From positions 35,212-99,211 of the forward strand of contig JACPKM010000004.1 in NCBI GenBank assembly GCA_016187025.1: DNA of 64,000 nt. Direction: 5' to 3'. Below, piece after piece: positions 1,224 to 15,637 of this stretch. Position 1 is the first letter of the stretch, and each line of letters starts with the position of its first letter. The position numbers and the translations under genes were made by a program. A model generated the notes under the pieces. That model made no database searches, had not been told where the DNA came from, and saw only the letters and a list, made by a program, of their open reading frames with translations. This DNA comes from Candidatus Daviesbacteria bacterium. Its GTDB lineage: Bacteria > Patescibacteriota > Microgenomatia > Daviesbacterales > UBA10151.

Positions 1224-3158
1224 ATGAAAAAAGGGCTTTTATCTTTAGCTTTCTTTCTTGCATTAGGGTTATTTTTATTTCCTGTTAATGTGCAGGTTGT
1301 TGAAGCTGCAGAAGAATGTCCTCCAGCTTGGGGAAAGCCTTACCCTTGGTGGGAAGAAGGATGTTACGAACAAGGCAAAGGTATTTTTGGTCAATGCCAG
1401 ATGCCACTCCTTACTTTCGATCTTGACCCTCTCGCTAAGCGATTTCCGGCAAGTGCATGTGGTAGAGACGAAAAAAGCGTCCCAGTTACTCCTAGCCAAC
1501 CATCCAAACCTAATGAGATTTTAAATCTTAATGCTATGCAGATTTCTACAGCTATAAGGGATTTGTGTGGTGAGGATAAGGAAAAATGTAGAGATGAAGT
1601 AAAATCTTGTGTAAGCGGACTAAAGGAGGACATTACTAAAAGCACAATTGAATCTTGTTTCAAGGTATACACAGTGAAAGCTGAGCAAGAAAGAACCTCT
1701 GTGCAACCTCTACCCGAAGTAAGACAAGCCTCTGAAGGGAATAGTGTAATAACTGGTAACTACGATTGTGAGAAAGCAACAGATAATAATGCTTTTTGTA
1801 GTAATAAATATGGTAATGGGTCTTTGTGTATCCCTGCTGGCAGAAAAACTGATGATGGTTGCACTGCTCCAAGTCAGACATCGCAATCAACAGAAAGAAC
1901 AGACACTAGAGAAGTTTCACCACCCCAGGTAGCTCCCAGGGCTGCTGTTTCTCCCACTGAAGAAGAAGGGCCTGGATGTGACGGGGTAGATTCTGTTTGG
2001 GGTATTTGGGAAAAGGGGGATGATGGTACTTTCAGTAAATTAAAACAAGTCAAATCAAGGTCTACAAATGATCCTCAGTGCGGATTCAAACTTTCCCAGG
2101 CACAACAAGATGAAATAGCTGTTCTAGAAAAAGACAGGCAGCAAGCCCAGCAGCAGGCCGAAAAACCAAAAATAAAAGAGGTCAAGGTAAATGGTAACCA
2201 GGTTGATATAAAAAATACTAAGGTTAAGCTTAATCTTTTGGATCTATGTAAAAAGTTAGATTCCAGCTGTACAGAAAAAACACTGAAACCAGTTACACTT
2301 GATATTGAATTAAAATTTACTGATGGCTCAACCAAAAGAATTGCTTTAATCCTTAAGCCTGCCGGGTCTTTAGGTAAGAAGGATGAGGCTAAGGGTTTGA
2401 TTCAAATTGGCCAAAGTGGTTGTACCCAAGATTCTCAATGCCAAATTCCTTCAGGAGATAGTAGGGGTTATTGTTGTACAGGTAGTAGCTGTGGAGACAA
2501 AAAAGGAAAATGTACAACTAAAGACGGAAGTTTAACCTCTTCCTCCTCAAACAGCGGTAGTTCAGCCCCTTCCAGTAACAAAGGGTCTGGAGAGTCCTGC
2601 AAAAGCAACAAGGAATGCCGTGATGGTTTGATTTGTATTGGGGAGAATGATTCGAGAGATTTCGGCTTGCCTAAAGATAAGTGTTACCCAAACCCTAAAA
2701 CTAGCAGTAAGCTGCCGGATGGGGCAGATTGCGTGTCAAATGCCCAATGTGTATCAGGTGATTGCAGGACAGGAGGTACATGTGATACTCCGGGGGGATG
2801 CAAGGGTAAATGTATAGGAGGGGGAAAACCCGGGGAGTTTTGCAGGCATGATTCGGAGTGCCCTTCAGGGTATTTCTGTCCCGGGAATAATGAGGCTGCG
2901 AAGTTAAATATCCAAAACGACAGATGCACCCCCTTATCTGTCAGAGGTTCCGGAGGAGGCAGTACGTCAGGAGGAAATTCCGGAGGTAGCAGCTCTTCAT
3001 CTTCAAACAGTTGTGGAACAACTCAAAGGCAGCCTTCCGGAAGTAAATGCTTGGGTGAATCATGCTCACAGGACTCTGAATGTAAAACAGGATACTGTTG
3101 TACTGGATCCAGCTGCACCAATAGAGGAAAGTGTACCAATGCAAATGGTAGTATATAA
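1224..3158 (+). CDS. secreted cysteine-rich modular protein
   Basis: Signal-peptide-like N-terminus (LLSLAFFLALGLFLFPVNVQVVEA). Several small Cys-rich modules (CKSNKECRDGLICIG, CVSNAQCVSGDCRTGGTCD, CRHDSECPSGYFCPG) and a twice-repeated GYCCTGSSC..GKCT module at ~2461-2520 and ~3090-3150, separated by Ser/Gly-rich linkers. Confidence 0.6.
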   Translation: MKKGLLSLAFFLALGLFLFPVNVQVVEAAEECPPAWGKPYPWWEEGCYEQGKGIFGQCQMPLLTFDLDPLAKRFPASACGRDEKSVPVTPSQPSKPNEILNLNAMQISTAIRDLCGEDKEKCRDEVKSCVSGLKEDITKSTIESCFKVYTVKAEQERTSVQPLPEVRQASEGNSVITGNYDCEKATDNNAFCSNKYGNGSLCIPAGRKTDDGCTAPSQTSQSTERTDTREVSPPQVAPRAAVSPTEEEGPGCDGVDSVWGIWEKGDDGTFSKLKQVKSRSTNDPQCGFKLSQAQQDEIAVLEKDRQQAQQQAEKPKIKEVKVNGNQVDIKNTKVKLNLLDLCKKLDSSCTEKTLKPVTLDIELKFTDGSTKRIALILKPAGSLGKKDEAKGLIQIGQSGCTQDSQCQIPSGDSRGYCCTGSSCGDKKGKCTTKDGSLTSSSSNSGSSAPSSNKGSGESCKSNKECRDGLICIGENDSRDFGLPKDKCYPNPKTSSKLPDGADCVSNAQCVSGDCRTGGTCDTPGGCKGKCIGGGKPGEFCRHDSECPSGYFCPGNNEAAKLNIQNDRCTPLSVRGSGGGSTSGGNSGGSSSSSSNSCGTTQRQPSGSKCLGESCSQDSECKTGYCCTGSSCTNRGKCTNANGSI

Positions 3159-4402: not shown

Positions 4403-5302
4403 CTATTTTGGTACCCAGATCCAATAACCTGACTGGTTTGAAGGATGAATCGAAGGTGGGTTATTAGGGCCTCCAATGGCTTTAGTATCTGGTACCAAAT
4501 ATGCAGATGAGGATGATTCTTGTCTGGGGGTAGAGCTCCAGACTCCGGTTGCTCCAACTGCTCCTTGGTTTTTTAGGATGATTGAAAGATCCATGTTGTT
4601 TATCACGCCGTCCTTGTTTAAATCTATATTATCATTCCAACTGGTAGAGGAGGGTGTTGTTCCAAAAGCAGATTTCGCAATATCTGAATCTGCAGTATTT
4701 ATCATATTGTCTTCATTTAAATCTCCACTTAACAGATTCACAACATCTCCGTTATTTAGATTTGTTTTGGTAGGTGACATTAAGAAAGCTGATGCTGTAG
4801 CAATTTGAGCAGGCCCTTTAATAATTGCTGTATAGGTATTGTTTGGGGTAAGTCCAGCCAGGGAGATATTGTCAAATTCACCAGATGTCGGTAGGTCAAT
4901 GGTAAAGCTTAATAGATACTTAGGGCTGGTATTTACTGCGCCCTCTATTATTCCTACAAACATCTTTGCATTTTGCTTATCCCCTGGCCTTCCTTGTAAA
5001 CTCAATTTAATACTTAAAGTAGGTCCAAATGATACAGAAAGTGTAGGCGGGTCTGATGATTGGGGAGTGGGAGAAGCCTCAGTGGTATCCTGTTCTGAAA
5101 GAAGTTTTAGTTCATCAATTGGTGATAGCTTCTCCTCAGGTATGGCAGAAGGGGTACTGATGGTAAAAGTCTTTTTAACAGCTTGAGAGGCTGATGATTT
5201 AATTGTTTGGTTTTGTGAGGCAAGATATGCTCCCACAGGAATAGAAAGCACTAAAAAAATATACACTCCTAAAATAACCCTGATCTTAGTAGAGGAGAAC
5301 AT
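4403..5302 (-). CDS. secreted protein with a type-I dockerin-like double Ca-binding repeat
   Basis: N-terminal signal/TM (ILGVYIFLVLSIPVGAYLA). The paired segments DLNEDNMINTADSDIAKSAFG and DLNKDGVINNMDLSIILKNQG (approx. nt 4570-4735) match the dockerin D.N.DG.IN..D pattern. Confidence 0.6.
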   Translation of the reverse strand: MFSSTKIRVILGVYIFLVLSIPVGAYLASQNQTIKSSASQAVKKTFTISTPSAIPEEKLSPIDELKLLSEQDTTEASPTPQSSDPPTLSVSFGPTLSIKLSLQGRPGDKQNAKMFVGIIEGAVNTSPKYLLSFTIDLPTSGEFDNISLAGLTPNNTYTAIIKGPAQIATASAFLMSPTKTNLNNGDVVNLLSGDLNEDNMINTADSDIAKSAFGTTPSSTSWNDNIDLNKDGVINNMDLSIILKNQGAVGATGVWSSTPRQESSSSAYLVPDTKAIGGPNNPPSIHPSNQSGYWIWVPK

Positions 5303-6431: not shown

Positions 6432-6477
6432 CCGGTATTGACATCTTTTCATATTCCTTGGTACGTTTAATATAATA

Positions 6478-9400
6478 ATGAATTTTCTTACTGCCTTCAG
6501 GAAGAGGGTTTTTTCTTTTTTCCTGAACCACCGCTTAAGTTTAAGTAAACCTCAGCAAATTGTTTTGATTGCTACAACTGGTTTGTTAATGACATCAGCC
6601 GCAGCATTGGGAGTAAGGGAAATGCTGATTCAATCTCAAACCAGCTTAAAAGCTCAACCAGAATCAAAAGATGTTCTAGCAGCTACCTCAGAAAGATTAA
6701 GGCTTACTGGAAATATCTCATTTAATCTACCAGCCTCATTTAATGATCTGATTAAGCTAAAATCAGGCCAGGTGGTAGAAGGGGTATCGGTGTTTAAGGG
6801 GGCTGTCAAATTCGAAGGGGATGTGCAATCTCTAGAGATTGAAAATGGTACTATCACCGCCTCAACCATCACTGCCTCAAACTTAGTTTACTCTCTTACA
6901 GCTGGGGATGGAATTTCTGTGACTACCGGACAAAGTCCGACTGTCAAAAATACCGGAGTGTTATCTTTGCAATCTAAAACAGGGGCATTAAAGCTTGAAG
7001 AAGGTACGGATATCACAATTGACGGACTTAAGATTACTGATAAATCCACATTATCAACTGTTTATTCAAGAGGAGGGTGTTCCTCATGCATCACAGATGC
7101 AGATGTGGCAGCAGGACTGACTATCTCAGGAGGAACAGTTGATAACTCTCCGATTGGAGCAACTACTGCCTCAACCGGTGCCTTTACTACTTTAACTGCC
7201 TCATCAACCCTTGCTGTGACAGGTAATTTATCAGCTGCAGCACAGGTGTTAGGTAAAAATGGTTCAGCGTCCTCACCCTCATATTCTTTTACCAATGACA
7301 CGGATACCGGTATCTATAGATTCGGAGCCAATTCTTTGGGCATCATTACCGGTGGCTCTGCCACATCCGGTTTAACCATTGATTCATCAGGTAATGTAGG
7401 TATTGGCACCACCTCACCATCTTCTGGTCTAGATGTGGTAGGCAGTGCCAATATTTCAGGTTCTTTAACAGTTTTGGGCAATTTAATAGCTGCCTCTTCC
7501 GGTACCTCAGGTTATTGGCAGAGATCAGGCACAACTATCTCACCATCAACCTCAGGTGATGCCATCACCACATCAGGTAATATTTCTACGTCTGGCTCCG
7601 GTACTATTACATCAAATTCCCTGCTTACTGCATCAAATGGACTCACTTTAACCACTGGGGCTTTAAATTTAACCTCAACTTCTGGTCAGGCAAATCTTGC
7701 TTTAACTGGTAATACAAATGCCTTTAGTATTAATGGATTATTTGGGGTAGATACCACTAGCAATAGAGTTGGCATTGGTACTACTGCTCCAACTACGGCA
7801 TTACAAGTTTTAGGAGGTAATGTTGGCATTGGTACATCCGGAGCAGGAGCTGCATTACAGGTTAATGGGGGAGGATTATTTGGCTGGGGAACAGCCTCTT
7901 CTGCCTTGTCCTCAGGAGCTATCCTGGGAGTAAATGGTAATGTGGGGGTTGGTACCACTTCCCCCATTGGAGCCCTGCATGTTGTAGGACAGTGTGTGGC
8001 TCGGGGGACAAGAATTAGGAAAAGGCGTAAAGGGTCAAGGGGTAAGGGTGAAGATGAATGGGAAGATGTGCCTGTGGAAGATATCAAACCTGATGATGAA
8101 GTATTATCCTTAAATGATACTACTGGTGAATGGGAATGGCATAAAGTAGAAAAAACCTTAAATAAAGGAATCCAGGAAACAATTAAGATTGTTACCCAGT
8201 CAGGCAAATGGATTGAAACCACTGATGAACACCCTTACTTAACTATTGAAAAAGATATCAAACCACTACCTGAATCTGGGAAATTTGAGGTAGATCTTTC
8301 CACCAGAATGGAAAAGAATGCTGATACCTTTGTAGCTATAGCCAACAACAAAGCTGCAGCAGTCATTAAAGTTAGTGTCAAAGATAAACAAAGCTTGAAA
8401 AAACTCTTTGCTAAATCCCCCAGACTGTTTGCTCCCACCCTTTATGCCCTTTGTATTATAGAGATTATTAAAAAGGGTAAGATCAGTCCATCACAACTAA
8501 AGATTGATACTGACTATCTGGGTTACGAAAGAAGAATTGAAAAATTAATTCATAATTTCTATCCGGAGATTGTCATCACTTTTGCGGAAGTTGGTCACGG
8601 AATAGGCTCATATGCGGACAGGGCTGTCTATCAGGCTTTTAGCCAAAAGAAAAAGACCGGGGCCGGCTTGAATCTCTATGGATTCCCGACTGCAGAATGG
8701 TTACACCATGACTGGTTACACGGATCCGCCACCCACACGGTCTTAACAAGCAAAGCCTATCACAAATTTACTGATTTGTCAATGGCCAGCGCTGTCTGGA
8801 AAAAGGTTAAACACCTAAAACCGGGAGATGTGATCGCCACCTCTGCCGGTTGGGAAAAAGTCCAAAATATATACTCTACCGGCAGAAAACAAACCTATGA
8901 CTTACAGATTGAAGGCACACATAACTTTGTAGGCAATGATATTGTTGCCCATAATACATATATTTCCGGTAATTTAGGGATAGGAGTGTCTTCTCCTACC
9001 AGTTTTGCCCTGCAGGTAGCAGGTAATATTGGTCCAAATGTTGATAATTCCTATGATTTAGGCTCAACATCAAATAGATGGAGAACTTTGCATGTAGGTC
9101 CGGGATCAGTGGTTGTCCACAATGATGCAGCAGATACACTTAAGGCTACTTTAGGTTTTACCGGATCAACAGCCCAGCTTATTACAGACTCATCCTCCCC
9201 CTTACAGCTTGTTACCGGTACAAACAACTTAGGATTATATCTAAATACCTCAGGCAATGTGGGTATTGGCAAGACCAATCCAAATTCTGCTTTAAATGTA
9301 ATCGGTAATGTTGGCATTGGTACATCCGGAGCAGGAGCAGCCTTACAGGTAAATGGTGGGGTAGTATTAGGCTGGGGGACTGCATCTGTTGCAGCACCAA

Positions 9401-12400
9401 GCAATGGTCTGGCTATTAATGGCAACCTAGGTATTGGTACCACTTCCACTAATGCCATGTTGGATGTCAGGGGTTCAACCATTATTGCTCCAACCACCAA
9501 TGGTACTACCAATGCCTTAATTGTGAGGGCTGCTCCAGGATCAACAGGCAATATCTTTAATCTAACAGATACAACAGGTTCAACCTCTTACCTTTCTGTC
9601 TCATCAGCCGGGGCCTTAACAGTTGGAGGCTCTACTTTAACAAATTCCGGACTTTTAGCCTCATCCGGAGCCATTAATCTGACCTCTTCTGCCAATGCCA
9701 TTGTAGGTACTGCTGTGGAAGGTGGCTGGACCATGAACTCTAATACTTTCACCTACAGGAGGGTGATGACTGTTGTAAACAATGATGGCTCAAATGCCCT
9801 GCCTTCAAACTATGAAGTGAGTGTCTCTTTATCCGGCTCAACTGCTTCCCAAATCTATTCTAACTCCCAGACAGACTATGATGATTTCAGGATAGCTTAC
9901 TCTACCAATGGCACAACTTTTACAGAAGTTACCAGAAATGTTTCATCCTTTACTTCCTCATCTGTTGCTTTCACCTTCCAAACCCAGGCCTCTATTGCAG
10001 CCTCCGGTTCTACCTCAAACTATTACATCTATTACAAAAACTCTTCTTTAACATGCTCATCCTGTACATATACCGGTAATGTGCAGCTGGATTCTATGGA
10101 TTCATCTGTTGGATCCTGGACTAGTGCTGATACCACTCAGTTTCCCTTAGCTCAGGAAACAGCCTCTATCTATACAGAAGGCACAGGTTCTTTAAAAGCC
10201 TCAGGGACTGTTGATAATATCGGGACTTTCTCAACCACCAACCAAAATGCCCTCTCCGGCGCCAGGACTAACTTTGGATTTAATGCCTCCAGTATTGGAG
10301 GAACTACTTATCTATATGCAGTCGGAGGTTCAACAGACGGAACAGCAGGCAATGCCCAGTCAACTGTATTTAGGACCTCAGCTGCAGCAGCCACCGGCCA
10401 TGTAGCTGCTTGGACAACTAACTCAAACTCTATCTCTGAGGCAAGATTAGATAACTCTGTAGCAGTAGCTACACCACCAGTTGATGGGGGAGATGGAACT
10501 GATGGGGCTATTGATTTAACTAATGGTTCTGGTGCAGGAGGATGTACAGGCACAGGACTTTCCTGGAGTGGATCTACCTGTACTATTGCCACAGCTACCA
10601 AATCTACCTTTAACTTTACAACAATTAATATTCCTTCTGGAACCACTCTAACCACAGATGGGCCAAAAACTACCACAAACTTTGTCACTATTAAAGCAAC
10701 TGGTAACGTAACTGTAGCTGGAACCATTAATTTAGCAGGAAAAGGGTATAGCGCACCTGTAAGCGGCCAAACCGCAGGAAGAGGTCCGGGAGGAGGGGCT
10801 TGTAGCTCATGTCAAGCTGCAGGAGGCGCCGGCCATGGGGGTGCTGGTGGTCAAGGTGGAGGTTACTCTGCTAGAACAGCAGCTGGTGCAACATATACTA
10901 CAGATGATTCTGGTAGCTCAGGCGCAACAGGGCAGGGCGGTGTCGGAGGAGCTGGCGGAGGAGGAATAAAAATTTCAAGCGGGGGTACAGTTATTGTATC
11001 AGGAACAATAAATACCAATGGTTCTAGTGGAACTGGTGATAGCAATACTGGAAGTGGAGGTGGAAGTGGGGGGAGGATTGCATTACAAGGAGGTACTCTT
11101 ACGATTAGCGGATCATTAACTGCAAATGGTGGAAACGGGGCAGATGGCACTCCTTCTGTAAATTATGGAGGGGGAGGTGGAGGTGGAGGAAGGATCACCT
11201 TTGAGTATTCAGGATCTGCCGATACCACTGGTTCAACAATAACTGTAACGGGGGGTAATGGAGGCGCTGGAACATGGACAGCAACTGCTTCAGGCACAGC
11301 TGGTTCTTCAGGAACAAATACATCAACGGCCTCAAGCCCTACTTTGTATGTATTAGGTGGTAAAAATACTTCAGGGACTGCACAGTCCGGGATATCTCAG
11401 GGGACTGTTTCTTCATCAGATGGGTCAGTGGGGGCATTTTCTGCTTCAGGTACTTCTTTATCCCAAGCACTTTATGGGCATACATCTAATGCAATCACCA
11501 TCAGTACTACTAATTATCTGTATGTAATTGGCGGTAATAATGGCACTACTGACCAGACCACTGTCTACAAAGGCTCTTTTTCCGATGCCAATATTTCCTC
11601 TTTTACCACCACTTCCCAGACCCAACTTAGTACAGGTATTTCCTATCATGCTGTGGCAACAGGGAGTATCTCATCAACTAATTATCTTTGGGTAATTGGC
11701 GGGTTAAATGGTTCTACTGCCCAGAGTACAGTTTACAAAGGTACATTTGATGCATCAGGAAACTTAACTTTAACTACCACCTCACAAAATGCTTTGCCCC
11801 AGGGGTTATATGGCCATCAGGCTATCTTTGCCACAGTTGGCTCTAATAACTATCTTTATGTTTATGGCGGGATAACCACAGGCGGGACCAGGCAGACCAC
11901 TGTTTACAAAGCAAGTGTAGATGCATCAGGGAATGTTGGTGCATGGAGTACAGTCGGCCAGACACAGCTATCCACAGCCATCTCCAACTTTGGAGCCTTT
12001 AACTTTACAGATTCTGATTCTAATCAGTATGCATATATAGTTGGCGGTAATACCGGTACTGCCCAAACTGCTGTTACTAAAGCTTCATATTCACCAATTG
12101 ACCAGACAGGCTATTCTGCCTCAAGGACTATTACCTCCAGTAACTGGTCAAACAAAAATGATTTGCAGTACAAAGTCTATTCCTCCAGGACAGGCTCATA
12201 TATGGTGCTGGAATACTCAGAAGATGGTTCTACCTGGCAGACCTGTACCTTTACAGTGTCTAGTGCCAATACCTGGGAAACCAAGACCTGTGATCTGACA
12301 GGTGTGGCTACCACAGGCAGGGATGCTGTGACTAATTTAAGGTTAAGAGTCACCTCCTCAACTACCACTGCCTGGACAGCTTATGTTGATGATATTAATG

Positions 12401-14718
12401 CTGTTACCAATGCCTCAACTATCTCAAACACTGCCTCATCAGGATCTCCACTTTCAGGTGCAGCCAATCTAACCTTAAATGCCCAGGGTACAGGATTAAT
12501 TTTACTAAACTATGATGCAACATCAGGTCTGGCAGGCACCGGAGGATTGGCACTTTACAACGGCGGCACCAGCCCGCTATTTTCTGTAGACAGTAGTGGC
12601 AATGTGGGTATTGGCACTACCTATATATCAGCCAAACTTCAGGTTAAAGGTGCAGGCACCGGAACCGGAATATCATTTATCACTGCAGACTCAAATGGAT
12701 TACACCGCTTTGCCATACTGGATAATGGTAATGTGGGTATTGGTACAACTAATCCATTATCCACTTTCCACATTGGTACAGGGTTGGCCATTGGTTCTAA
12801 CACTTTATCTTTCTCAACCTCAACAGGCAGACTAGGTATTGGTACAACATCTCCCGGTGCCACCTTAGGTATTACAGGTAATCTAGGTATTGGGGCCTCA
12901 TTTGCCAATTCAGCTGCTCCATCATTTGGTTTAGCAGTGCAGGGTAATGTAGGTATCGGGACAACCTCTCCTGATTACCCCTTACATGTCATAGGTAATG
13001 TAGGAATAGGCAGTAGTTTAACTGTGACAGGATTAGGTGTGTTAAATGGTGGCCTGCAAACAACCAATATTAATGCTACTTCTTTAACCACCTCAGGAAA
13101 TGTGGGAGTTGGTGGATCAATCACCGGCTTTGGGGCATTAAATGGCTTAAATGTTACAGGGTTAACAAGTTTAGCAGGGCTAAACGCCAGTGGTAATGTA
13201 GGTATTGGCTCTTCATTAACAGTTACTGGTCTTTCGGTATTAAATGGTGGAATAGCTGCTCCAACGCTATCTTTAACAAACTTGACCTCAGGTGGAGCAT
13301 TGTTTACCGGTCCTAATGGGTTAGTATCACAAAATATACCAAACTACTACTGGGATAATACCAATAACAGATTAGGGATTGGTACCTCTGCACCAGGTTC
13401 TCAGTTGGCGATAATCGGTAATGTAGGTATTGGTACCTCTGGGGCAGGGGCTGCTTTACAGGTTAATGGAGGAGGATTATTTGGCTGGGGGACTGCATCT
13501 ACTGCCCTGTCATCCGGGGCTATATTGGGGGTTAATGGAAATGTGGGTATTGGTACTACCTCTCCTACAGCTTTGTTACAGGTCCAGGGGAGCGGTAGCA
13601 TGCCTTCCTTGCTGGTAACTTCCGGTGGAAATATAGGGATAGGGACTTCTGTGACATCAAACCCCATCACTGTTGGCACAGACGGCTCAACCGGTAATGG
13701 GGCATATCTGTCTACAGGAGGAACGTGGACAAATGGGTCATCCTTTGAATTTAAAGAAAACTTTGAATCTTTAAATAACTTGGATATTCTATCAAAGATT
13801 ATTGAGTTAGATATATCTTCTTGGAACTATAAACTGGAACCGGGCATAAAACACATTGGGCCTGTGGCTGAGCAGTTTTACTCTGTGTTTGGACTGGGAA
13901 ATGATAATAAACATATCTCAACCATTGATCCAGCAGGTATAGCACTGTTAGGAATACAAGGCTTGTCAGGACAGATTAATGATTTAAGAATAAGACTTAA
14001 TGAATCCACCCCTTCTGCCAAGCTATCTTTGGAAGATAAAATAGCTTCACTTGAGGCCAGGATCAAGAATCTGGAATCAAAAGAAGGTACATCTTCTGCA
14101 GAGGCCACATCATCTGCTCAGGAGTCTTCCGCTTCTGCGCTCTTGGCTCAAAGCCCTCAGCTTACCTTAACTCCTCCTGATGTATTACTTGCAACAGGTT
14201 CTGCTACTTTGGCAAATCTAGCTGTTACTTCTGAAGCAACTTTTTCAGGTAAACTTGCAGCATATAACCTAAATGTCTCTGAATCATTTAAAGTATTCGG
14301 GGAAACTTCTCTTGGTAAAACCAGTATTGCGGGGGATGTAAATATAGATGGAACTATGAATATCAATGGTAATTCTTTGTCAGTGATTGGCACACTTTTT
14401 ATACAAAACAGTCCATTTTCCAAGGATATAGATTTGTTTAATGGTAAAGTAAAAATAGATAATACGGGTAATTTAACTGTTCAAAAACTTACAGTTTCCC
14501 AAAAGACCTTGGGGACAGTGACAATTCCTGCAGGGCAGAATCAATTTACAATTTACAATTTACAATTTACAAATAAATCCAAAGTATTTGTGACTCCTGA
14601 AAAACCGGTGGCAATTGGGGTCAGCAAAGACGCTGCCAACTCCCAATTTACTATCCAATTAGACAAAGCCCAAAGCAGTGATTTGAAAGTAGACTGGTGG
14701 ATCGTAGATGTTGAGTGA
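6478..14718 (+). CDS. giant (2746 aa) membrane-anchored fibre-like surface protein with an intein
   Basis: Single long ORF with an N-terminal TM anchor and many GN(V/L)GIGTTSP..L.V.G repeats. It carries an intein (7993-8955), a Gly-rich beta-helix-like region (~10740-11290), 5-6 Kelch-like Y.YV.GG...T.VYK repeats (~11500-12100), a C-terminal peptidase-S74/intramolecular-chaperone-like segment (FKENFESLNNLDILSKIIELDISSWNYKLEPGIKHIGPVAEQFYSVFGLG..., ~13740-14000) and a coiled coil. Confidence 0.85.
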   Translation: MNFLTAFRKRVFSFFLNHRLSLSKPQQIVLIATTGLLMTSAAALGVREMLIQSQTSLKAQPESKDVLAATSERLRLTGNISFNLPASFNDLIKLKSGQVVEGVSVFKGAVKFEGDVQSLEIENGTITASTITASNLVYSLTAGDGISVTTGQSPTVKNTGVLSLQSKTGALKLEEGTDITIDGLKITDKSTLSTVYSRGGCSSCITDADVAAGLTISGGTVDNSPIGATTASTGAFTTLTASSTLAVTGNLSAAAQVLGKNGSASSPSYSFTNDTDTGIYRFGANSLGIITGGSATSGLTIDSSGNVGIGTTSPSSGLDVVGSANISGSLTVLGNLIAASSGTSGYWQRSGTTISPSTSGDAITTSGNISTSGSGTITSNSLLTASNGLTLTTGALNLTSTSGQANLALTGNTNAFSINGLFGVDTTSNRVGIGTTAPTTALQVLGGNVGIGTSGAGAALQVNGGGLFGWGTASSALSSGAILGVNGNVGVGTTSPIGALHVVGQCVARGTRIRKRRKGSRGKGEDEWEDVPVEDIKPDDEVLSLNDTTGEWEWHKVEKTLNKGIQETIKIVTQSGKWIETTDEHPYLTIEKDIKPLPESGKFEVDLSTRMEKNADTFVAIANNKAAAVIKVSVKDKQSLKKLFAKSPRLFAPTLYALCIIEIIKKGKISPSQLKIDTDYLGYERRIEKLIHNFYPEIVITFAEVGHGIGSYADRAVYQAFSQKKKTGAGLNLYGFPTAEWLHHDWLHGSATHTVLTSKAYHKFTDLSMASAVWKKVKHLKPGDVIATSAGWEKVQNIYSTGRKQTYDLQIEGTHNFVGNDIVAHNTYISGNLGIGVSSPTSFALQVAGNIGPNVDNSYDLGSTSNRWRTLHVGPGSVVVHNDAADTLKATLGFTGSTAQLITDSSSPLQLVTGTNNLGLYLNTSGNVGIGKTNPNSALNVIGNVGIGTSGAGAALQVNGGVVLGWGTASVAAPSNGLAINGNLGIGTTSTNAMLDVRGSTIIAPTTNGTTNALIVRAAPGSTGNIFNLTDTTGSTSYLSVSSAGALTVGGSTLTNSGLLASSGAINLTSSANAIVGTAVEGGWTMNSNTFTYRRVMTVVNNDGSNALPSNYEVSVSLSGSTASQIYSNSQTDYDDFRIAYSTNGTTFTEVTRNVSSFTSSSVAFTFQTQASIAASGSTSNYYIYYKNSSLTCSSCTYTGNVQLDSMDSSVGSWTSADTTQFPLAQETASIYTEGTGSLKASGTVDNIGTFSTTNQNALSGARTNFGFNASSIGGTTYLYAVGGSTDGTAGNAQSTVFRTSAAAATGHVAAWTTNSNSISEARLDNSVAVATPPVDGGDGTDGAIDLTNGSGAGGCTGTGLSWSGSTCTIATATKSTFNFTTINIPSGTTLTTDGPKTTTNFVTIKATGNVTVAGTINLAGKGYSAPVSGQTAGRGPGGGACSSCQAAGGAGHGGAGGQGGGYSARTAAGATYTTDDSGSSGATGQGGVGGAGGGGIKISSGGTVIVSGTINTNGSSGTGDSNTGSGGGSGGRIALQGGTLTISGSLTANGGNGADGTPSVNYGGGGGGGGRITFEYSGSADTTGSTITVTGGNGGAGTWTATASGTAGSSGTNTSTASSPTLYVLGGKNTSGTAQSGISQGTVSSSDGSVGAFSASGTSLSQALYGHTSNAITISTTNYLYVIGGNNGTTDQTTVYKGSFSDANISSFTTTSQTQLSTGISYHAVATGSISSTNYLWVIGGLNGSTAQSTVYKGTFDASGNLTLTTTSQNALPQGLYGHQAIFATVGSNNYLYVYGGITTGGTRQTTVYKASVDASGNVGAWSTVGQTQLSTAISNFGAFNFTDSDSNQYAYIVGGNTGTAQTAVTKASYSPIDQTGYSASRTITSSNWSNKNDLQYKVYSSRTGSYMVLEYSEDGSTWQTCTFTVSSANTWETKTCDLTGVATTGRDAVTNLRLRVTSSTTTAWTAYVDDINAVTNASTISNTASSGSPLSGAANLTLNAQGTGLILLNYDATSGLAGTGGLALYNGGTSPLFSVDSSGNVGIGTTYISAKLQVKGAGTGTGISFITADSNGLHRFAILDNGNVGIGTTNPLSTFHIGTGLAIGSNTLSFSTSTGRLGIGTTSPGATLGITGNLGIGASFANSAAPSFGLAVQGNVGIGTTSPDYPLHVIGNVGIGSSLTVTGLGVLNGGLQTTNINATSLTTSGNVGVGGSITGFGALNGLNVTGLTSLAGLNASGNVGIGSSLTVTGLSVLNGGIAAPTLSLTNLTSGGALFTGPNGLVSQNIPNYYWDNTNNRLGIGTSAPGSQLAIIGNVGIGTSGAGAALQVNGGGLFGWGTASTALSSGAILGVNGNVGIGTTSPTALLQVQGSGSMPSLLVTSGGNIGIGTSVTSNPITVGTDGSTGNGAYLSTGGTWTNGSSFEFKENFESLNNLDILSKIIELDISSWNYKLEPGIKHIGPVAEQFYSVFGLGNDNKHISTIDPAGIALLGIQGLSGQINDLRIRLNESTPSAKLSLEDKIASLEARIKNLESKEGTSSAEATSSAQESSASALLAQSPQLTLTPPDVLLATGSATLANLAVTSEATFSGKLAAYNLNVSESFKVFGETSLGKTSIAGDVNIDGTMNINGNSLSVIGTLFIQNSPFSKDIDLFNGKVKIDNTGNLTVQKLTVSQKTLGTVTIPAGQNQFTIYNLQFTNKSKVFVTPEKPVAIGVSKDAANSQFTIQLDKAQSSDLKVDWWIVDVE
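7993..8955 (+). other. intein (321 aa) inserted in the giant surface protein; +1 extein residue Thr
   Basis: Starts with Cys (CVARGTRIR...), has block B TDEHPYL, and C-terminal blocks F/G TYDLQIEGTHNFVGNDIVAHN followed by Thr. The flanking exteins continue the NVGIGTTSP repeat pattern. The central ~200 aa has no LAGLIDADG or HNH motifs that I can see. Confidence 0.8.
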
Positions 14719-14833: not shown

Positions 14834-15637
14834 ATGAAAAAACTGCCCATTTTAATATTTGCTGCAATACTTGTTTTCTCCATTGTTTTTCCTGTATTTG
14901 CTCAGGAAGAGCAGGAACAAGAGGCAACAGGGTCATCAGATGCCTCCATGGGGGTTGCAAATTATTTGGTTATTGAAGGGGATGTGAGGCCTGGAAATAT
15001 TATTTGCTCTGCAAGTAATGGGTATTCACTGTGTGATGAAGCCTATGATTCCAGTATGCTGGGGGTAGTGGCAGAAAATCCAGCAGTGTCTTTTAATTTA
15101 ACAGGTTCAGATGAGTCTTCTCATCCTGTTATCTCCTCAGGCACAACTTATGTTTTAGTAAATAGTGAAGGCGGAGAAATTAAAAAAGGAGATTTAATAA
15201 CTACATCTGCTACAAACGGCGTTGGAACAAAAGCTTCCAAAAGCGGTTTTGTTCTGGGCTCTGCCATTGAAGGTTTTAATCCCGGTAAACCAACAGATTC
15301 AGGGACAATCGCAGTTTCACTGTATATGCACTACAGCAACCTCCAATCTGCAAAAGTTCAAGGCCAGCTGCAGGATGTATTTAAGCTAAGCGCCATTGCT
15401 GCTACAGAATCTCCCAGTGAAGTTTTTAAATACTTTTTGGCAGGGCTTGTAATCATGTCTTCTGTGGCAGCAGGGCTTTATACCTTTGGCAGGACAGCCA
15501 GCAGGGGTTTGGAGGCTTTAGGCAGAAATCCGATGGCCCAAAGAATCATTCAGATGGGGATTGCCATGAATGTGGTATTGACTGTAGCGATAGTTAGTGC
15601 AGGAGTAGTGATAGCCTATTTCATCTTACGGCTTTAA
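14834..15637 (+). CDS. atypical ATP-synthase c-subunit-like protein: signal peptide + ~180-aa extracytoplasmic domain + C-terminal c-type TM hairpin
   Basis: N-terminus MKKLPILIFAAILVFSIVFPVFA|QEE. The C-terminal 70 aa (LAGLVIMSSVAAGLYTFGRTASRGLEALGRNPMAQRIIQMGIAMNVVLTVAIVSAGVVIAYFIL) align with the F/V-type c subunit helix-loop(R-N/Q-P)-helix. The gene sits first in the alpha-gamma-beta-epsilon operon. There is no Asp/Glu at the helix-2 position 18 residues after the loop Pro. Confidence 0.5.
   Translation: MKKLPILIFAAILVFSIVFPVFAQEEQEQEATGSSDASMGVANYLVIEGDVRPGNIICSASNGYSLCDEAYDSSMLGVVAENPAVSFNLTGSDESSHPVISSGTTYVLVNSEGGEIKKGDLITTSATNGVGTKASKSGFVLGSAIEGFNPGKPTDSGTIAVSLYMHYSNLQSAKVQGQLQDVFKLSAIAATESPSEVFKYFLAGLVIMSSVAAGLYTFGRTASRGLEALGRNPMAQRIIQMGIAMNVVLTVAIVSAGVVIAYFILRL

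Follow-up and report, generated by a model that had tools for sequence, protein, structure and literature searches.

Sequence evidence for a class-1 intein with a predicted RNase H-like domain in a putative giant surface fibre of Candidatus Daviesbacteria

Canonical mobile inteins (the DnaB and DnaX mini-inteins, PI-SceI and PI-PfuI) are built on the Hint fold, with a cysteine at position 1, a TxxH motif, a terminal His-Asn and a nucleophile at +1; a further domain is nested between the two Hint halves, and the element lies in frame at a conserved motif of its host. Four families of homing endonucleases are found in inteins (LAGLIDADG, HNH, GIY-YIG and His-Cys box), and inteins are biased to proteins of replication and repair (PMC7765530). 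Bacterial intein-like (BIL) and pretoxin-HINT domains, in contrast, occur in secreted or variable bacterial surface proteins, in hypervariable regions, with incomplete splicing motifs and no endonuclease (PMC7765530). Here we describe an element with these features of canonical inteins in a 64-kb window (the whole stretch of DNA analysed, 64,000 nucleotides of contig JACPKM010000004.1 of Candidatus Daviesbacteria bacterium, GCA_016187025.1). It lies within a single uninterrupted open reading frame (ORF) of 2746 amino acids (aa) on the plus strand, at 6478..14718. We consider it probable that this ORF encodes the precursor of a giant surface fibre of the candidate phyla radiation (CPR), which carries a class-1 intein with an RNase H-like nested domain and is processed by an S74-type domain.

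Judged by its sequence, aa 506-826 is a class-1 intein, for which splicing is predicted. The Pfam model Intein_splicing matches it above the cut-off (E 2.2e-13), the NCBIfam models of the intein N- and C-termini match as well, and a phmmer search against PDB retrieves the DnaX and DnaB inteins. The segment has the Hint fold, and its class-1 splicing residues (the Cys506 nucleophile, T582xxH585, His825-Asn826 and Thr827 at +1) are all invariant in 7 aligned homologues; at every readable junction in the family a Thr at +1 follows the C-terminal His-Asn (His-Gln in one). It could be argued that such a Hint domain, residing as it does in a secreted or variable bacterial surface protein, is a cleaving-only BIL or pretoxin-HINT domain that releases or diversifies the secreted protein, as in polymorphic toxins. 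However, the motif set is complete, and the insertion point is the most conserved motif of the host, a repeat motif, rather than a hypervariable region. Because intein models match, the splicing residues are complete and true inteins outscore BIL domains by sequence and by structure, we file the segment as an intein and regard a cleaving-only domain as improbable. What sets this intein apart from the canonical ones is its host, a secreted repetitive structural fibre and not a replication, repair or ATPase protein, and its nested domain, which has a predicted RNase H-like fold and not the LAGLIDADG fold of PI-SceI and PI-PfuI.

The repeat ending in GNVGVGTTSPIGALHVVGQ gives way to CVARGTRIR at the N-terminal junction; at the C-terminal junction, 321 residues further on, THNFVGNDIVAHN precedes TYISGNLGIGV. 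The extein flanks are GCCCTGCATGTTGTAGGACAG and, directly after it, ACATATATTTCCGGTAATTTAGGG, where an uninterrupted repeat reads CATGTTATTGGTAATGTTGGTATTGGT, and the predicted spliced-junction peptide is ALHVVGQTYISGNLGIGVSSPTSFALQVAGNIGPNVDNSYDLGSTSNR (ALHVVGQ-TYISGNLGIGV). Since the intein interrupts the repeats, the translated ORF would be a precursor and not the mature protein; a first-pass annotation, made from the letters alone, had overlooked the intein and read one continuous fibre polypeptide. If this holds, what has been predicted for the giant 'tail-fibre-like' CPR proteins in size and architecture applies to precursors; these proteins are the foremost candidates for attachment to a host.

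The same junction is found across distant CPR lineages. All 8 of 8 close intein homologues sit in the same extein context, and the readable junctions of distant copies are mostly of the form ...LHVxGQ↓CVTGDT ... IVAHN↓TY(I/L)xG (arrows, junctions), most of the hosts having GNVGIG repeats. About 110 of the top 120 members of the fibre family bear no intein. Sister inteins at the same junction hold other domains in the same slot, namely NYN in P0032 (aa 994-1377, E 5e-27) and DUF3800 in P0059 (aa 109-501, E 2.6e-9), and the inserts of others (P0031, P0045 and the second intein of P0125) are unassigned; LAGLIDADG or HNH was present in none of the sister inteins examined. These results suggest that nuclease modules have been swapped on one intein scaffold. 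Uninterrupted repeats read ...HV(I/V)G-NVGIG..., so that the Q and the TYIxG seem to travel with the intein, and its spread by repeat recombination or by homing with co-conversion is in either case possible.

It is also evident that a single gene can hold many inteins, because the target motif is repeated within the gene. In a second Ca. Daviesbacteria assembly (GCA_016187035.1, JACPKL010000001.1; locus L001), DNA of the window intein is matched, with 73-89% identity, at seven N-junctions and at seven C-junctions, and the junctions are the best-conserved DNA between the window and L001 copies. The L001 fibre locus adjoins the ATP synthase operon, with the fibre gene following the ATP synthase genes. 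In L001:6036-21611 the ORFs each begin inside one intein and end just past the start of the next (IntC-extein-IntN), although one intein copy is unbroken and stays in frame. The breaks arise by a shift of frame that follows a basic RRRRRK stretch and a 'TMDDGEIEDGDLK' insertion. A multi-intein fibre gene of a Microgenomates genome (GCA_007376405.1, VMGD01000021.1, 1-5513; locus L006) likewise falls into three ORFs broken in the intein N-terminal regions, and one of its inteins seems to have a second Hint segment nested or fused inside. We considered whether these relatives are naturally split inteins and set this aside, the breaks in L001 and L006 being frameshifts or deletions at varying points and one copy being in frame. 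They were taken as assembly errors or decay because both loci come from short-read metagenome-assembled genomes rich in repeated intein copies, and for the L001 breaks errors of assembly within repeats, decay and genuinely split inteins are all conceivable. A tRNA-Glu(CTC) was called by ARAGORN at L001:20365-20434 (minus strand), between the last recognisable C-junctions and just 5' of the S74-carrying ORF. The idea that a 'GIEPV' string in some mini-inteins marks an antisense tRNA was rejected, as ARAGORN called none in L006.

Between the Hint halves of the window intein lie about 175 residues in which Pfam finds no match, even at E<=10. The modelled structure of aa 600-723 follows the order beta1-2-3 / alpha / alpha / beta4 / alpha / beta5 / alpha, with a predicted local distance difference test (pLDDT) score of 75-85. 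This is the secondary-structure order of an RNase H-like core, and the fold matches RNase H-like proteins rather than LAGLIDADG, HNH, GIY-YIG or His-Cys box endonucleases. Across 71-152 sequences D606, S608, E612 and D677 are invariant, and Q607, E679, Y683 and H714 nearly so; the motif D-Q-S-G-(K/R)-x-E formed around the first of them presumably resembles DEAGRG of RNase HII. The carboxylates D606, E612 and D677 are candidates for a metal-binding site. From RNase HII and other members of the RNase H-like superfamily, such as integrases, RuvC and PIWI, the domain differs in its length (~125 aa), in having no detectable sequence homology to a solved structure or a Pfam family, and in being found inside inteins or as ~150-aa CPR proteins. 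It most likely adopts, to go by the model, an RNase H-like nuclease fold and represents a present or former homing nuclease.

A profile search among 1.84 billion cluster representatives returned 658 relatives of the nested domain (E<=1e-3). Among the 150 best, 103 stand alone, at <200 aa (most ~145-190), and 49 are parts of long proteins, in 47 of which Hint motifs adjoin the domain. Known homing-endonuclease families also have free-standing homologues. The named free-standing relatives are all from CPR bacteria (Jacksonbacteria, Gottesmanbacteria, Roizmanbacteria, Levybacteria and Microgenomates), and Pfam gives nothing significant on ten of the free-standing proteins. This family (P0133-P0384, ~145-190 aa), for which an RNase H-like fold is predicted from the model, shows the pattern M..EIDQSGKIE ... 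ID.EYPG.E ... IGK.S.AH..AY and has no Pfam family and no annotation; it is thus an uncharacterised family with a testable fold prediction.

The free-standing relatives lie among housekeeping genes (leuS/comEC and fusA/dnaJ/nusA in the contexts L002, L004 and L005), in no obvious mobile context, and this favours a different view of the nested domain, in which the intein is real and the domain is a captured CPR housekeeping protein of RNase H-like type, perhaps one that regulates splicing or works on nucleic acids once released, or an inactive remnant, and the element spreads via repeat recombination and not by homing. A missing empty target site, changes at two near-invariant positions and an exported precursor that carries the domain out of the cell (all discussed below) would fit this view too. 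It is harder to reconcile with the position of the domain in the classical endonuclease slot between the Hint halves, where sister inteins hold the NYN and DUF3800 nuclease folds, with the strict conservation of the acidic residues in the intein-borne copies, and with the recurrence of one junction in distant CPR lineages. We therefore regard a captured domain without homing function as unlikely, though a serious competitor to a homing nuclease. A closer relationship to DUF3800 was also considered and was ruled out, as an hhalign comparison of the 71-sequence profile with the DUF3800 of the P0059 intein gave a probability of 0.06.

This last result is one of several that weigh against a fibre precursor bearing a nuclease-carrying intein. 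The RNase H-like assignment depends on an AlphaFold model (pLDDT 75-85) for which 7 sequences were aligned, and a profile of the nested domain has no match among solved structures even at E<=10. The window copy carries L607 where the family has Q and D714 where it has H, residues found in a minority, 7 and 3 of the 152 sequences, respectively; with these substitutions the window copy may be losing its nuclease and keeping its ability to splice. At 40.7%, the GC content of the intein falls just short of the extein values (43.5-44.1%). None of a set of 128 retrieved proteins contains an intein-free HVxGQ-TYxxGN site, and in 185,579 species-representative genomes an intein-free junction was matched once, by chance, in Runella and with a stop codon. 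Intein-free alleles of the same site, and hence a gain of the element, were not seen in these sets, and homing into an empty allele is accordingly hypothetical. A precursor with an export anchor, if translocated unfolded, would place intein and nuclease outside the cell, where a homing nuclease is useless. With this anchor, splicing would have to come before translocation to keep the nuclease inside, and a homing nuclease that acts from within an exported protein is a puzzle raised by our reading. The S74 score lies just above the Pfam cut-off, and that domain is not C-terminal. Protein splicing, S74 cleavage and nuclease activity are all inferred from sequence and model.

With these points taken into account, we still favour the intein-bearing fibre precursor. 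The intein would be a selfish element of a lineage that occupies one position of the fibre repeat, the repeat DNA would offer many near-identical target or recombination sites, and the RNase H-like domain would act, or have acted, as the homing nuclease in place of LAGLIDADG or HNH. The element is canonical in its intein scaffold and unusual in its host class, in the fold predicted for its nested nuclease and in its repeat-targeting lifestyle. In the full-text literature that we searched, neither inteins of CPR fibre proteins nor inteins that carry an RNase H-like, NYN or DUF3800 domain are described, and the same holds for the GNVGIGT repeat motif and for these fibres; the protein and its Pfam intein match are already in public databases. 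A broader proposal, which we put forward tentatively and would not be surprised to see fail, is that an undescribed CPR intein lineage parasitises the repeats of giant fibres, with RNase H-like, NYN and DUF3800 domains unreported in inteins, that it multiplies within a gene, and that the cell's main surface fibre can be completed only after one to many splicings. If true, the host range of inteins would extend to a secreted repetitive surface fibre, more nuclease folds would have been recruited for homing, and these genes would provide a natural system for intein spread inside repeats. Splicing might then gate or diversify the assembly of the fibre.

The second processing element is the S74-type domain, whose presence in this protein the first-pass annotation had proposed and placed at the C-terminus. 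Pfam PF13884 matches aa 2422-2471 with 23.9 bits (cut-off 22), which bears out the proposed Peptidase_S74. A profile built from the C-termini of 19 family members matches the L-shaped tail fibre (pb1) of phage T5 (E 3e-4) and the tail fibre 8jov (E 9e-4); MYRF is matched weakly (E 0.26). Searched against PDB with phmmer, the C-terminal 352 aa yield no match, so that the phage fibres are reached by the family profile alone. Ser2421 and Lys2426 are invariant in the 19 members and align with the Ser and Lys of T5 pb1. In sequence family, in the Ser-x4-Lys dyad and in its place after a repetitive fibre shaft, the domain resembles the chaperones of phage endosialidases and tail fibres (Peptidase_S74; T5 pb1, K1F endoNF) and the MYRF ICA domain. 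The position at the C-terminus did not hold, as 246 residues follow. In them a coiled coil and a linker lead up to a conserved module of ~190 aa, which is matched in 29 of the 128 retrieved proteins, with E<=3e-37 in no fewer than 14 of these, and has no Pfam or PDB match. With this conserved coiled coil and module behind the S74 domain, the picture known from phages, where a terminal chaperone is cut off and discarded, is not directly transferable. Trimerisation-dependent autoproteolysis would be expected by analogy with other members of the family. The C-terminal module is also present in the intein-bearing homologues P0045 and P0059, whose precomputed Pfam lists show no S74. Family member P0082 (aa 1302-1367) has, in place of S74, the autoproteolytic chaperone domain Peptidase_G2 together with an end that resembles K1-lyase_C, and phage-type intramolecular chaperones appear to be interchangeable among these fibres.

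The S74 domain with its matches to phage fibres, and the name 'tail fiber domain-containing protein' that NCBI gives to some of the homologues, might indicate a prophage or phage-derived tail-fibre gene and not a cellular surface structure. The protein differs from phage Peptidase_S74 proteins, however, in being chromosomal, membrane-anchored and cellular. The flanks are cellular as well: rplL and rplJ on the minus strand and, directly upstream of the fibre gene, a gene for an LPG-synthase-like membrane protein; downstream, ATP synthase alpha, gamma and beta and rplA. No phage genes were seen among the neighbouring genes of the window that were inspected. The whole protein matches no PHROG tail-fibre family, its only PHROG match being to an intein in a terminase, and repeat block 3 with S74 is matched in only 4 of 50,697 phage records, at ~30% identity. 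Thus the statement that the repeats are typical of phage tail fibres is but weakly supported. Of 378 fibre homologues (E<=1e-10), almost all of those with an organism name are from CPR bacteria; they are chromosomal in many CPR genomes, on contigs of up to 1.1 Mb, often with a MerR-type helix-turn-helix (HTH) and a membrane segment. A phage origin of the gene is hardly credible in our view.

The assembly that we envisage for the cellular fibre is as follows. The precursor would be inserted via its N-terminal anchor, with the GNVGIGT-type repeats as a shaft and the Gly-rich, Kelch propeller and beta-sandwich domains as a ligand-binding head. The intein would excise by the class-1 route and join ...ALHVVGQ to TYISGNLGIG..., restoring a continuous shaft. 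The S74 domain would first nucleate the folding of repeat block 3 into a trimer and would afterwards cut at Ser2421 via the Ser2421/Lys2426 dyad, and the C-terminal 326 residues would be freed or stay attached non-covalently. Maturation of the CPR fibre would then include two autocatalytic steps. A surface-anchored fibre with a Kelch head and a self-cleaving S74 chaperone is supported by the sequence features (Table 1), and ligand binding, surface location and a role in attachment may be expected from what is known of the families.

Table 1. Features of the fibre precursor, by residue of the ORF product and by position in the window
Feature	Residues (aa)	Position	Strand	Remarks
Fibre precursor ORF		6478..14718	+	2746 aa; 2425 aa once the intein is removed
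N-terminal hydrophobic anchor	28-46	6559..6615	+	IVLIATTGLLMTSAAALGV; basic residues precede
Repeat block 1	305-505	7390..7992	+	ends ...GNVGVGTTSPIGALHVVGQ, the N-extein junction
Intein (321 aa)	506-826	7993..8955	+	Cys506, block B T582-D-E-H585, His825-Asn826, +1 Thr827
Hint N-terminal half	506-595	7993..8262	+	basic RKRRK strand after block A
RNase H-like-fold domain (predicted), in endonuclease slot	600-723	8275..8646	+	D606, S608, E612, D677 family-invariant
Intein linker, low confidence	724-769	8647..8784	+	pLDDT <50
Hint C-terminal half	770-826	8785..8955	+	blocks F and G (THNFVGNDIVAHN)
Repeat block 2	827-1000	8956..9477	+	begins TYISGNLGIGV, the C-extein junction
Beta-rich conserved domain, no assigned family	1075-1240	9700..10197	+	kept in 10 family members
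Kelch-like unit 5' of Gly-rich block	~1245-1325	10210..10452	+	YLYAVGG at aa 1278
Gly-rich block	~1340-1612	10495..11313	+	from composition
Kelch beta-propeller blades	~1613-1905	11314..12192	+	
Beta-sandwich-like domain after propeller, no assigned family	1906-1985	12193..12432	+	
Repeat block 3	2041-2400	12598..13677	+	from motif scan
S74-type intramolecular chaperone domain	2421-2500	13738..13977	+	candidate Ser2421/Lys2426 dyad (NG↓SSFEFKEN)
Heptad-like stretch and Ser/Ala-rich linker	2501-2560	13978..14157	+	from sequence; length varies in family
Conserved C-terminal module	2561-2746	14158..14715	+	LTLTPPDVLLAT ... FNGKVKID ... DWWIVDVE

In a homology search with the intein-free sequence, the ORF product is 99% identical, at equal length, to NCBI 'hypothetical protein HYW42_03395 [Candidatus Daviesbacteria bacterium]'. 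Its anchor, already recognised in the first-pass annotation, is borne out by hydropathy: aa 28-46 is the sole hydrophobic stretch and the only 19-aa window with a Kyte-Doolittle value >1.6 (2.0). The GNVGIGT-type repeats are likewise present, in 18 copies of G[NR][VLI]G[IV]G and not in dozens as had been stated; they fall into three blocks (aa 305-505, 831-1000 and 2041-2400). Many homologues (P0012, P0014, P0016-P0019, P0021, P0022 and others; L001:6117-6400) begin with a MerR/HTH_17 domain and then a membrane segment, that is, a cytoplasmic HTH fused to a giant extracellular fibre; the window protein is without such a domain. Because of this N-terminal HTH_17, some homologues of 2-4 kaa are named 'MerR family transcriptional regulator' by NCBI.

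The Kelch propeller of the head stands, as the blades are four-stranded and carry the hhhGG signature, though the Pfam Kelch scores fall below the cut-off. A sixth blade might be provided by the unit at aa ~1245-1325, a candidate on account of its motif and of modelled strands of low confidence (pLDDT 50-60). Compared with other Kelch-domain proteins (KLHL12; bacterial YjhT/NanM), the propeller is embedded in a giant fibre, and this one blade-like unit would be set apart from its five fellows by an insert of ~270 aa that is rich in Gly. That insert is confirmed in its composition (34.6% Gly in aa 1420-1604) and not in the beta-helix once proposed for it, since the model gives short strands (pLDDT 60-88) around a disordered 60-aa stretch; a beta-helix is still plausible on such a model. 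Of the two domains with no assigned family, the one at aa 1075-1240 has no Pfam match, and the one at aa 1906-1985 has an all-beta model (pLDDT 76-86) and is kept in 5 homologues.

In the vicinity of the fibre gene are a gene for a dockerin protein (4403-5302, minus strand) and one for a Cys-rich secreted protein of 644 aa (1224-3158, plus strand); the latter has a signal peptide and many CxxGSSC...GKC modules with Ser/Gly-rich linkers, and it has no Pfam match. Both genes exist as the first-pass annotation described them, and it had combined them with a single continuous fibre polypeptide, in which the Hint segment has no meaning, into one surface apparatus. The Kelch, S74, repeat and anchor features on which that scheme was built are confirmed, but the scheme leaves unexplained a segment that passes the intein models with every splicing residue in place. 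As for a joint apparatus, the only argument is one of proximity, across genes of the other strand: the neighbours are on the other strand or separated from the fibre gene by rplJ/rplL and the LPG-synthase-like gene, and the L001 fibre locus has different neighbours. We consider this scheme very improbable. The window contains no further fibre genes or inteins.

Directly 3' of the fibre gene, at 14834-15637 on the plus strand, lies a gene whose 267-aa product has a signal peptide and, at its C-terminus, membrane helices; this product shows a weak sub-threshold match to the XM1_gp53 minor capsid protein (21.9 bits; cut-off 27). The number of sigma-70-like sites in the region is not above chance. 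One pair of such hexamers (TTCATA-17-TATAAT, 10/12) lies at 6448-6476 on the plus strand and ends 2 bases 5' of the ATG at 6478; were this pair active, transcription would begin no earlier than the annotated start codon.

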